Part shown: piece by piece, positions 22,966 to 25,638 of the stretch | Layout: the number at the start of each line of letters is the position of its first letter | How positions within the stretch are numbered: position 1 is the first letter of the stretch | NCBI GenBank assembly: GCA_031459385.1 | Contig: JAVKIP010000011.1 | Span: 1-64,000 of the forward strand | Origin: Candidatus Fervidifonticultor secundus | Lineage (GTDB): Bacteria; Sysuimicrobiota; Sysuimicrobiia; Sysuimicrobiales; Humicultoraceae | Length of the DNA stretch: 64,000 nt | Direction: 5' to 3' | Made by a program: the position numbers and the translations under genes | The notes under the pieces: model-generated | Database searches by the model: none | Seen by the model: only the letters and a program-made list of their open reading frames with translations | Told to the model about the DNA's origin: nothing

Positions 22966-22995
22966 TTGCCGCACTCGAGCGCCGTCGCCTATAAT
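22966..22995 (+). promoter_or_regulatory. Sigma70-type promoter of tRNA-Val
   Basis: TTGCCG-N18-TATAAT. Confidence 0.7.
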
Positions 22996-23006
22996 GAACA
23001 TGTTTC

Positions 23007-23081
23007 GGGCGCTTAGCTCAGAGGTAGAGCGCCTCTCTGACGCAGAGGAGGTCGGAGGTTCAAGTCCTCCAGCGCCCACCA
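23007..23081 (+). tRNA. tRNA-Val (GAC)
   Basis: Cloverleaf: GGGCGCT/AGCGCCC acceptor, GCTC/GAGC D arm, CCTCT-CTGACGC-AGAGG anticodon arm, GGAGG-TTCAAGT-CCTCC T arm, encoded CCA. Confidence 0.97.
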
Positions 23082-23342: not shown

Positions 23343-24395
23343 CTACGGTGCCCGCACCAGCTCCTCCAGGTTTACCCCCAGCAGCCGCGCCACCTCGCGG
23401 ATCGGCGCGAAGAACTCGTCCAGGCTCGACAGCTTGACCCGGTGCGCCGTCCGCAGCGTGTCCAGGTCGGCGAACGCCTGGATCCGGTAGAGCGCATCGA
23501 GGGTCTCCCTGCCTGGAGCGGTCTGGGCGATGCGCACCAGGGCCAGCGCCACTCGCGCCGCCACCTCCTCAGGCAGGTCCCGACGGAACGAGACAGTGTC
23601 GGCCGGGATGGGGTCGGTGCGAAGCAGCACCCGTACCCGCTCCTTGACGTCGGGATAGTGGCGGATGACGCGCTCGCGGGCGTCGTTTCCGAACTCGTCG
23701 CCGAAGGTGGCCCCGGCATCGACGCTGCCGGTGTAGACCGCCAGCACCACCTTGTCGTGCCCGCCGGCGAACACCACTTGGCTGAAGTGGCGCTGGGGGT
23801 CGAGGCCGTGGCGTTTGAGGAGGGCGGCGGGGAAGAGGTAGCCCGACGCCGAGGCGGGGTCAACGAACGCGAACCGGCGGCCCCGCAGGTCGGCAACGGT
23901 ACGGATGGGCAGGTCGGCGCGGTAAACGATCTGGGAGCGATAGTACGGGACACCGAACCGCACGCTGACCAGACGGACCTCCGCCCCACACCGCTGGTGC
24001 GCCAGCACGTAGGCGAATGGGTGCAGGAAGGCGACGTCCACGCGGCCGGCGCACATGGCCTCGATGGTGGCCGCGTAGCTGGTGGGGACGTCGGCGCGGA
24101 TCCGGTAGCCGGTGGCCACCTCGAGCATCCGGGCCAACGTGCTGCCGGTGGCCAGCACGCGCTGTGCGTCGCTGGAGGGGGTGAACGCCAGCGTGATGGT
24201 CTGGACGGGCGACGCGGCGCCGGCTAGGATGGACGGCTCGGCCCGCAGCGACCCCGAACTGGCCGCGACCAGCGCCAGGGACGCCAGCGCCGCAGCGGCC
24301 ACCCGTCCCACGCCTCCCCGCACAGCCACGGTTGCCTGCGCCGCGTCAGCAGCCGTCCGCCGTGGACCTCCTGTCCGGTCTCGCCTGGCTCGCAT
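23343..24395 (-). CDS. PhnD-family (phosphate/phosphite/phosphonate-type) substrate-binding protein, orphan
   Basis: PTSYAATIEAM, YYRSQI, FAFVDPASASGYLFP, FAGGHDKVV, TDPIP; SD AGGAGG. Confidence 0.88.
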   Translation of the reverse strand: MRARRDRTGGPRRTAADAAQATVAVRGGVGRVAAAALASLALVAASSGSLRAEPSILAGAASPVQTITLAFTPSSDAQRVLATGSTLARMLEVATGYRIRADVPTSYAATIEAMCAGRVDVAFLHPFAYVLAHQRCGAEVRLVSVRFGVPYYRSQIVYRADLPIRTVADLRGRRFAFVDPASASGYLFPAALLKRHGLDPQRHFSQVVFAGGHDKVVLAVYTGSVDAGATFGDEFGNDARERVIRHYPDVKERVRVLLRTDPIPADTVSFRRDLPEEVAARVALALVRIAQTAPGRETLDALYRIQAFADLDTLRTAHRVKLSSLDEFFAPIREVARLLGVNLEELVRAP

Positions 24396-24459
24396 CGCCG
24401 CACCTCCTGCGGGGGCTAACGACACTGCAGCCGCCCGGTCCACGCGGACTGGCGGCTGC

Positions 24460-24580
24460 GGCACGGCTCCCCACGCCAGCATTACCTGGATCGGGTCCAA
24501 CGGGTCGGCGAAGATCCCGGTGAGCGCACCGGGCGGTTCGCCCTCTCAGCCCGCCTGCTTTCGAGCTCCCCGACGATGGG
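24460..24580 (-). ncRNA. TPP riboswitch (THI element)
   Basis: Minus strand GGGGAGC...GCTGAGAG-[P3a stem]-GACCCGTTGGACCCGATCCAGGTAATGCTGGCGTGGGGAG matches the TPP aptamer consensus. Confidence 0.88.
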
Positions 24581-24732
24581 TCTGTCGCCTCCAGCCTACC
24601 GACGACACGCCGCCGCCCGCAAGGGCCTGTACCGGCCAGGGCCTGGGTTCGCGTTAGACGGCCAGCCTCTCCTGGGTACGCGCGGCGGTGTTGCACCGGG
24701 GGCGCGGGTGTGGTAAGGAGGTGACACGGCAG

Positions 24733-25638
24733 ATGTCTCGTGTGCGGATGCAGTTGGTAGTCCTGGTGGCCGCGCAGGTCCTGGTGGCCGCGCTGCTGGT
24801 CGGTGCGCCGGCGCGGTCGGCCACCGGCCTGGGCGCCACGCAGGTACTGGTGGATGTGGCCTGGGTGGCAGCGCACCTGGAGCGGCCGGACGTGCGCGTG
24901 GTGGACGTCAGCAGCGCGCCCGCGGTCTACGCGCGCGGGCACCTGGCGGGCGCCGTCTACGTCCACTGGCAGGCCGACCTGACGGATCCCACCCACCGGG
25001 TCAAAGGGATGGCTCCGACCCGCGAGCAGTTCCAGGTCCTGGCACGCCGGTTGGGGATCCGCAACGAGGACAGCGTGATCCTCTACGACGATACCAGCAG
25101 CCTGTTCGCGGCGCGGGCGTTCTGGATCTTCAAGCTCTACCGCCATCCGCGTATCGCGATCCTCGACGGCGGTAGCCGGCGCTGGGTGGCCGAGGGCCGG
25201 CCACTGGTGACCGGCAGCAGCGCGCCGGCACCGTCGACGTATGCAGCGCCCCCGCGGGACGAGAGCATCCTGGCGACAACCGAGGACCTGCTGGCGAAGC
25301 TGGGCAGCGGGCTCGTCTGCGACGCGCGCAGCCCGCGGGAGTACGCAGGCCTCGACGTGCGCGCGGCCCGCGGCGGCCACATCCCGCATGCGGTGAACGT
25401 CGAATGGACTGCCGCCGTCAACCCCGACGGGACGTTCAAGCCCGCAGAGGCGCTGGCGGCCATCTACGGGCCCCGGTTTGCGCGCGACCGCGAAGTGATC
25501 GTGTACTGCCAGACCGGGGTACGGGCTGCCCACACCTGGTTCGTGCTGAAGTCCCTGCTGGGGTACCCCCGGGTCCGCAACTACGACGGCAGCTGGGAGG
25601 AGTGGGGGAACCGCTCCGACACACCGGTGCAGCGGTAG
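24733..25638 (+). CDS. Tandem-domain rhodanese/sulfurtransferase with N-terminal signal peptide
   Basis: GHLAGA, ILDGG, GGHIPHA, active site YCQTGVRA, YDGSWEEW; SD AAGGAGGTG. Confidence 0.92.
   Translation: MSRVRMQLVVLVAAQVLVAALLVGAPARSATGLGATQVLVDVAWVAAHLERPDVRVVDVSSAPAVYARGHLAGAVYVHWQADLTDPTHRVKGMAPTREQFQVLARRLGIRNEDSVILYDDTSSLFAARAFWIFKLYRHPRIAILDGGSRRWVAEGRPLVTGSSAPAPSTYAAPPRDESILATTEDLLAKLGSGLVCDARSPREYAGLDVRAARGGHIPHAVNVEWTAAVNPDGTFKPAEALAAIYGPRFARDREVIVYCQTGVRAAHTWFVLKSLLGYPRVRNYDGSWEEWGNRSDTPVQR

Follow-up and report, generated by a model that had tools for sequence, protein, structure and literature searches.

Few markers of thiamine-metabolism genes are as reliable as thiamine pyrophosphate (TPP) riboswitches, which have led to ThiT, ThiXYZ, YkoEDC, CytX and PnuT. 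ThiY, the binding protein of ThiXYZ, is encoded along with a permease and an ATPase of its own and takes unphosphorylated ligands, and TbpA/ThiB (thiBPQ) and Mycoplasma p37/Cypl are ATP-binding cassette (ABC) binding proteins that take up thiamine monophosphate (TMP) or TPP, which sets a precedent for phosphorylated ligands. PhnD is under Pho control, and to our knowledge the ligands of PhnD/PhnT-family proteins are so far just phosphite, phosphonates, arsenic oxyanions and glycerol phosphates. Here we describe a TPP riboswitch directly ahead of a gene for a PhnD-family substrate-binding protein in Candidatus Fervidifonticultor secundus (genome G000), found in a stretch of 64,000 nucleotides that we call the window (contig JAVKIP010000011.1, positions 1 to 64,000). 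The B1-sensing switch, together with the place of this gene in thi operons of related genomes, suggests that it probably represents an undescribed way of capturing a compound related to vitamin B1. Our best explanation is a TPP-repressed uptake component for B1 salvage that binds a phosphorylated ligand and borrows its permease. As a complete statement we regard this as evenly poised between right and wrong; a thiamine-related uptake role taken by itself is, from the sequence comparisons, quite probable.

We found no publication that links a TPP riboswitch to a PhnD-family protein in the literature covered, which did not include the supplementary gene-association tables of riboswitch surveys. 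ThiXYZ is mentioned in PMC3766115, and the part of that paper covered makes no mention of phosphonate.

The riboswitch and its thi operon context

The aptamer aligns with the RF00059 model over its full length (Table 1). Its architecture is complete, with the cores CUGAGA, ACCC and GAUCCAGGUAAUGCUGGCGUGGGGA all there in the RF00059 alignment, and an insert of about 25 nt is confined to the variable P3 loop. In a permissive scan of positions 24200-24800 it scored 54.1 bits against a curated gathering score of 54.3; a gathering-threshold Rfam scan of the whole window listed the tRNA alone, and RF00059 surfaced in E-value mode. The orthologous copies scored 55.6 bits (G002), 54.4 bits (G001) and 51.9 bits (the third orthologous locus), and those of G002 and G001 pass the gathering score. 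Downstream of the aptamer lies a GC-rich hairpin of nine GC-rich pairs plus an inner stem of four, the candidate expression platform. The leaders of G001, G002 and G007 keep its sequence, as does the leader of the thiW operon of G000, where a trailing AUUUU suggests termination; the window copy has no T-run and a U-poor tail, and the whole-leader fold has a z-score of -0.38. The Shine-Dalgarno sequence GGAGG (24403-24407, 7 nt ahead of the ATG at 24395) is itself enclosed in a small hairpin, CCGCA-GGAGG-UGCGG, that may add translational control. A reading of the letters without database searches, which we call the sequence-only reading, had placed a TPP aptamer on the minus strand, to be checked with RF00059, then a strong hairpin and a hairpin around the Shine-Dalgarno sequence. 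The model match bears out the first, and the strong hairpin both folds and is conserved in the orthologs. The Shine-Dalgarno hairpin sits where it had been placed; the leaders of the three orthologs lack it, and it is therefore specific to this genome.

The association of switch and gene was followed across 41 related genomes, G000 included, most of them metagenome-assembled genomes (MAGs), and all evidence given here is comparative. The window protein has 49 PhnD-like matches in this set, and RF00059 lies directly upstream of just four of them, namely those at least 74% identical to it (G000, G001, G002 and G007), which span two Armatimonadota genera, g1 and g6. None of the other 45 has the riboswitch directly upstream; G039 has both on one contig, 39 kb apart. 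Direct scans gave RF00059 in all three orthologous loci, a single riboswitch being found per locus, and no hit at E <= 0.01 in 15 loci of the non-riboswitch type (61,370 bases). In a tree of 35 sequences the four riboswitch-linked proteins form one clade (support 100/99) nested among canonical ones, and gene context follows the same division: phnC stands beside 28 of the 31 non-riboswitch genes (the exceptions are L034, where the gene ends with the contig, L038 and L053) and beside none of the four riboswitch-linked genes.

In the orthologous loci the leader stands ahead of a thiE-thiL-thiD or a thiW-thiM-thiE-thiL-thiD operon. In G002 and G001 the order is riboswitch, binding protein, thiE, thiL, thiD, with a gap of 21 nt between the binding-protein gene and thiE in G002. 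In G007 it is riboswitch, binding protein, SSF carrier, thiW, thiM, thiE, thiL, thiD, and the SSF start overlaps the stop of the binding-protein gene. In two congeners of G007 (G016 and G022) the riboswitch is followed by the SSF gene at the operon head (thiW comes next in G022) and there is no binding protein. The Armatimonadota relatives have 20 other TPP riboswitch loci that were examined, and the open reading frames scanned there were cytX, thiW, thiT, the gene for thiamine pyrophosphokinase (TPK), thiO-thiG, thiE, tenA and the SSF carrier; among them none was PhnD-like and none was unrelated to thiamine. The sequence-only reading had proposed looking for thiamine linkage among orthologs, and it is there, as a riboswitch in four of four and a thi operon in three of four, so that on these comparisons the thiamine link of the gene is real. 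As a side observation, an SSF gene (PF00474) is first or second behind TPP riboswitches in L112 (G016), L114 (G022), L117 (G005) and L050:2382-3884 (G007), and it usually precedes thiW. It is probably a carrier of a thiamine precursor, and we presume a likeness to ThiV.

The genome under study departs from the operon arrangement. The thiW locus of G000 reads riboswitch, thiW, thiM, thiE, thiL, thiD, without a binding-protein gene, and is syntenic with the G001 and G002 loci through a shared upstream AIRS-family gene (about 500 aa) and a DegT aminotransferase gene. Its riboswitch is 88% identical to the binding-protein riboswitches of G001 and G002 over the roughly 160 columns that span P1 through the hairpin; the window riboswitch is 82-84% identical to those of G000 thiW and G001/G002 in the same comparison (84% over 159 aligned columns against G000 thiW), and the cytX riboswitch just about 50%. 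From this synteny and these identities we conclude that the gene left the thi operon in the G000 lineage, taking along a whole riboswitch copy with P3 insert and hairpin. The two near-copies in G000 (Table 1) are a clear case of a complete riboswitch duplicated along with a gene. Besides the riboswitch and the gene, the window locus and the orthologous loci have no neighbours in common. That the switch was kept after relocation speaks for selection on TPP control and against an accident. The sequence-only reading had called the binding protein an orphan; this holds for G000 alone, where it is a derived state. The AIRS-family gene (not ThiL, to which it is about 30% identical) and the DegT-type gene are always found upstream of the thi-operon riboswitch in genus g1.

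In the window locus around the binding-protein gene we found no ABC ATPase or permease gene and neither phnC nor phnE, in line with the sequence-only reading, which had noted the lack of adjacent phnC/phnE. The flanking genes include, besides those in Table 1, an MFS carrier and a hybrid histidine kinase. The tRNA gene abuts the 3' end of the binding-protein gene, so the relocated unit of riboswitch and gene landed beside a tRNA, and a strong sigma-70-like promoter match (10 of 12 positions) at 22966-22995 lies 12 nt ahead of that tRNA gene.

Table 1. Positions of the features discussed; coordinates without a prefix are those of the window.
Feature	Position	Strand	Basis or remark
TPP riboswitch aptamer (RF00059)	24451..24582	minus	54.1 bits, E 7.7e-10, model positions 1-105 of 105
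GC-rich hairpin, expression platform, GCAGCCGCC...GGCGGCUGC	24427..24459	minus	minimum free energy (MFE) and centroid folds
Hairpin enclosing the Shine-Dalgarno sequence, CCGCAGGAGGUGCGG	24398..24412	minus	read from sequence; partly formed in fold
PhnD-family (PF12974) substrate-binding protein, 350 aa	23343..24395	minus	profile matches
tRNA	23007-23078	plus	neighbour of the binding-protein gene
Rhodanese gene	24658-25638	plus	neighbour
thiW-operon riboswitch of G000 (L003)	G000:C12:236509-236640		near-copy of window 24451-24582, P3 insert and hairpin included
AIRS/DegT upstream block	L048:11232-12740, L049:9602-11005, G000:C12:236696-238042		genus g1

Family, pocket and probable permease of the binding protein

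By family the window protein is PhnT-type, as are PhnD, PtxB, HtxB and GpxB (TC 3.A.1.9), with which it shares PF12974 and TIGR01098. PF12974 ('Phosphonate-bd') matches with 213.3 bits (cut-off 27) and TIGR01098 with 198.9 bits (cut-off 112). The PhnD equivalog model TIGR03431 gives 153.2 bits, below its cut-off of 261.1, and the protein further differs from PhnD proper in that no phnC/phnE is adjacent, in the thi operons of its relatives, and in a host genome (97.6% complete) in which the phosphonate catabolism protein PhnJ was not found. It is unlike all of these described PhnT-family proteins in standing under a TPP riboswitch. The motifs TSY, YYRS, ASASGY and GGHD are present, so that a PhnD-like binding protein with phosphoryl-binding motifs, as read from the sequence at first, is what the profiles also see. 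Like ThiY, it is a type II periplasmic binding protein, belongs to the clan of that protein and stands under a TPP riboswitch, and it presumably takes part in B1 salvage by auxotrophs, a role that PMC3766115 in part describes for ThiXYZ. Unlike ThiY, it belongs to another family: its best match is PF12974, and PF09084 (NMT1) reaches 29.8 bits, a weak match without distinguishing value, given that a canonical paralog scores 37 bits. A THI5-like HMP-P (hydroxymethylpyrimidine phosphate) synthase was considered and rejected, since the protein is exported and PF09084 is merely a weak secondary match. There is likewise no real sequence relationship to TbpA/ThiB or p37/Cypl: NF045838 ('thiamine pyrophosphate-binding lipoprotein') gives 16.4 bits against a cut-off of 225, and the profile search produced no TbpA or ThiB model at E <= 0.01. 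By role the protein may therefore be ThiY-, TbpA- or p37-like, and by sequence it is a member of none of them. A hydrophobic N-terminal export segment was read by eye at about residues 31-46, and the orthologs and the two other riboswitch-linked lineages described below have short signal or lipoprotein-like N-termini, from which we conclude that the protein probably works outside the cell.

Among solved structures, PtxB, HtxB, ArrX, AioX and E. coli PhnD come closest (E 1e-22 to 1e-10). Alignment to Te_PtxB (5JVB), read against the residue list in the portion of PMC5700983 that was covered, equates Y107 with Y55, Y152 with Y100, S182/A183/S184 with S130/T131/S132, H213 with H160 and D266 with the capping Y208. 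The position of D266 is held by D205 in E. coli PhnD, an Asp as in the window protein, and by T247 in GpxB, according to the part of PMC12718374 consulted. Y107, Y152, S182, S184 and H213 supply the two Tyr, S-x-S and His of the phosphorus head-group site of the PhnD/PtxB/HtxB/GpxB proteins, and together with D266 they are kept in all seven riboswitch-linked sequences and in nearly all of 110 aligned relatives.

What sets the riboswitch-linked clade apart is small. Among 183 columns conserved in the canonical clade (16 close sequences, two of them from the unpublished genomes G010 and G019, which were used solely for these rows), it has the same residue in 146, varies in 30 and shows a fixed difference in seven: V72T, A125H, K173R, K195R, K255R, Q304R and D334E, a list that is unchanged without G019. 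Just three are non-conservative (V72T, A125H and Q304R), giving the clade-specific residues T72, H125 and R304; among the 110 sequences, the last two are confined to this clade. Residues 63-231 align with 49-217 of 9lf9_A, an offset of 14 that places Y152, S182, S184 and H213 on Tyr138, Ser168, Ser170 and His199 of GpxB and H125 on its Thr111, as far as the residues given in the covered part of PMC12718374 go. In the same part of that paper, Thr111 contacts the phosphate and the glycerol hydroxyls, i.e. the head and the tail of glycerol phosphate, and here the window protein differs from GpxB by a His. Position 72 falls in the loop that closes over the pocket like a latch, two residues ahead of the one equivalent to PtxB D22 (PMC5700983).

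G000 has three strong PF12974 genes, the window gene and one each on contigs C57 and C23. The C57 paralog is 69% identical to the window protein and is followed by phnC and phnE; the C23 paralog has 39% identity by blastp (40% in the genome search), and after it come phnC and then two phnE genes. The window protein is thus a paralog, of recent origin, of the binding protein in a canonical phnDCE set, and as such it probably borrows the permease of that set. A C57-type PhnE is found in G000, G002 and G007, and a C57-type PhnC/PhnE is the likely partner. HisJ and LAO, paralogous binding proteins of about 70% identity that use one permease, are the classical parallel. The likeness lies in an orphan binding protein 69% identical to one encoded beside a permease; the differences are that the second binding protein here is under a metabolite-specific RNA switch and embedded, in the relatives, in a cofactor salvage operon, and that permease sharing is predicted. 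Within the Armatimonadota riboswitch-linked clade dN/dS is 0.04-0.21 over 278 codons, which indicates purifying selection, with dS near saturation.

Recurrence in other lineages

The same pairing turned up outside this clade. A genome-collection scan covered 44 loci by a motif pre-screen, followed by Rfam on 10. In a Chloroflexota MAG (G041, locus L064) RF00059 scores 41.7 bits directly ahead of a gene for a PhnD-family lipoprotein that is 40% identical to the window protein and whose start codon, an ATG, falls within the 3'-terminal part of the aptamer. Another riboswitch candidate from the regex pre-screen, L096, was rejected when Rfam gave no confirmation. Among 41 genomes around G041, five have a match at E <= 1e-40, and the ortholog in G043, 81% identical to the G041 protein, carries RF00059 with 49.8 bits. 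The G041, G042 and G043 genes have no adjacent phnC, and their paralogs of 45-53% identity in the same genomes do. A metagenome-collection scan (36 loci, 15 scanned with Rfam) added two contigs with RF00059 upstream, L150 with 64.5 bits and L138 with 47 bits, the latter riboswitch being cut by the contig end. Their binding proteins are 98% identical to each other and about 41% identical to either other lineage. When L150:861-1748 is compared with L138:1-1106, the L150 frame differs upstream of about residue 40, which may be a frameshift or an assembly error.

In a tree of 39 rows, three changes are required to account for the riboswitch label, and the approximately unbiased (AU) test rejects a single riboswitch-linked clade (p 1.08e-5), for a group that was named after the draft tree had been seen and with L138 on a long branch. 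Recruitment of PhnD-type proteins to thiamine metabolism seems to have happened more than once. A broader statement, that PhnD/PhnT-family proteins were recruited at least three times as riboswitch-controlled receptors for phosphorylated B1 compounds, borrowing a phosphonate-type permease, is a tentative one that we hold to be somewhat more likely wrong than right. Other PhnD-family clades in Chloroflexota and metagenomes (L060-L063, L104, L136 and L137) are also without phnC within 0.7-3 kb; Rfam scans of six of these seven loci gave no TPP riboswitch, and L060 matches PhnE upstream.

Ligand, mechanism and alternatives

RF00059 matches G000 (3.3 Mb, 97.6% complete, 5.5% contamination) at three sites, before a CytX-type permease gene, before thiW and in the window, and the genome encodes CytX, ThiW, ThiM, ThiD, ThiE and ThiL. 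ThiC and TenA were not found in it, and ThiG was present as 25-bit fragments alone; a tblastn search of G000 with the proteins of relatives likewise failed to find ThiO, ThiG, TenA, ThiT, TPK and the SSF carrier. TPK and ThiT were not found in any of the four riboswitch-linked Armatimonadota genomes, with the control genome G009 positive for both, and all four also appear to be without ThiC. From these gaps we take G000 to be auxotrophic for B1, bringing in the pyrimidine half and the thiazole half and coupling the two, and free thiamine is unusable to it by known routes. Thiazole supply differs within the genus: G002 (L109) has a riboswitch-controlled thiO-thiG, and G000 has thiW-thiM and no thiG.

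The mechanism that we propose assumes OFF logic. At high cellular TPP the aptamer would be stabilised and the downstream hairpin would form, shutting off expression, with the Shine-Dalgarno hairpin perhaps joining in in this genome; at low TPP the binding protein would be made. Derived by duplication from the PhnD of a phnDCE system, it would capture a thiamine-related compound outside the cell and hand it to a PhnC/PhnE-type permease encoded elsewhere, most likely that of the C57 paralog. A phosphorylated compound would feed ThiL or ThiE directly in a host without pyrimidine synthesis, ThiT and TPK. That the ligand is indeed a phosphorylated B1 compound is, on present comparisons, roughly a matter of even chances. 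It is the reading that we favour because the head-group site is intact in three old lineages, because the four Armatimonadota carriers have neither TPK nor ThiT, and because hydroxymethylpyrimidine (HMP) and hydroxyethylthiazole (HET) have dedicated carriers in CytX and ThiW.

Each of these points bears directly on the closest rival, in which the ligand is thiamine-related and unphosphorylated (thiamine, HMP, aminomethylpyrimidine (AmMP), formylaminomethylpyrimidine (FAMP) or a thiazole precursor) and the protein is ThiY-like, the head-group residues being left over or binding another polar group. Riboswitch-controlled ThiY/NMT1 proteins of the same superfamily do bind unphosphorylated pyrimidines or thiamine, the weak PF09084 match fits, free thiamine would be usable in the Chloroflexota carriers with their TPK, and at 69% identity the duplication is recent enough for residues to linger. 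Erosion would nevertheless be expected of an unused site, and the residues are intact in seven of seven sequences across three lineages, including the divergent ones at about 40% identity; moreover, free thiamine, AmMP and FAMP are unusable by known routes in four Armatimonadota genomes without TPK and ThiT (G000 also without TenA), and HMP and HET are already served by CytX and ThiW, both under riboswitch control. We consider this rival unlikely, at perhaps half the probability at which it would become an even contest. Still less probable is that the protein kept the ligand of its paralog, a phosphonate, phosphite or small phosphate ester, with the riboswitch a by-product of the thi leader or a coupling of phosphorus to cofactor supply. 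This is where the small divergence counts: just seven fixed differences from the canonical clade, four of them to Arg and most of them conservative, and pocket head residues that are common to canonical paralogs along with an acidic tail pair, D233/D266, which we take from an alignment by eye to match E177/D205 of E. coli PhnD. A by-product is hard to reconcile with the gene having retained its own riboswitch copy when it left the operon in G000, with a riboswitch-PhnD pairing that arose in at least two further lineages, and with 20 other TPP riboswitch loci whose scanned open reading frames included no thiamine-unrelated gene; a retained phosphonate ligand sits poorly with the failure to find PhnJ in G000 and with H125, unique to the riboswitch-linked clade at a ligand-contact position.

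A role outside ABC transport, as the extracytoplasmic partner of a sensor (kinase or chemoreceptor) or of a secondary carrier such as the SSF protein of G007, would account for a binding protein without a dedicated permease. The abstract of PMC8050422 speaks of PhnD-type domains as sensor modules, the SSF gene comes next in G007 with overlapping stop and start codons, and G001 lacks a C57-type permease. However, no transporter or signalling gene follows the binding protein in G001 and G002, most positions conserved in the canonical clade are retained (146 of 183), and binding proteins 69% identical to a cognate ABC one classically use its permease, as HisJ and LAO do. We think such a role very improbable.

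Several observations weigh against a phosphorylated B1 ligand taken up under TPP control through a borrowed permease, and they keep our confidence in it limited. The window riboswitch falls 0.2 bits short of the strict gathering score, and a scan for consensus terminators found none near the GC-rich hairpin, so no canonical terminator accompanies it. G001 has, in an assembly that is 94% complete and in 350 contigs, no C57-type permease that we could find and the distant C23 type alone. In the Chloroflexota, G042 has a 70% ortholog without a riboswitch (8 loci scanned), and the carriers there have TPK along with a riboswitch-controlled ykoF-ykoF-ykoE-ykoD-ykoC, so the argument from missing TPK does not generalise. 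Three non-conservative changes would be few if specificity passed from a small phosphonate-type ligand to one of the size of TMP or TPP, no specificity residues common to the three riboswitch-linked lineages were found, and that 9lf9 is the GpxB of PMC12718374 is inferred from matching residue numbers alone, in the part of that paper covered. Finally, our ranking of ligands, TMP or TPP first and then HMP-P or HET-P (HET phosphate), is a guess. As a detail of the Chloroflexota carriers, L165 (G041:C170:70500-80500) shows this second TPP riboswitch at the head of the yko genes, with the TPK gene convergent just downstream.

The sequence-only reading had proposed that a 'phosphonate' binding protein was repurposed to bind TMP, TPP, HMP-P or thiazole-P. 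That a PhnD-type binding protein was turned to thiamine metabolism is well supported, by the riboswitch in four of four orthologs, the thi operon in three of four and the recurrence in other lineages. The named ligands stay a guess that draws on indirect points: the kept head-group residues, a host without TPK and ThiT, and one substitution at a ligand contact.

The gene would offer a clean natural case of functional change in a binding protein, a recent paralog with very few substitutions, one of them at a ligand contact. It points to a new substrate class for a family that is usually auto-annotated as 'phosphonate binding', and the annotation of such genes in metagenomes would be corrected. 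For uncultured thermophilic Armatimonadota and Chloroflexota that rely on the B1 compounds of their neighbours, it also points to a new route of B1 salvage. The habitat label 'hot springs metagenome' belongs to sequencing runs from which this DNA may itself derive and thus gives no independent support. Should these proteins indeed be receptors for phosphorylated B1 compounds, B1 auxotrophs of hot-spring communities would be trading phosphorylated B1 vitamers as nutrients.

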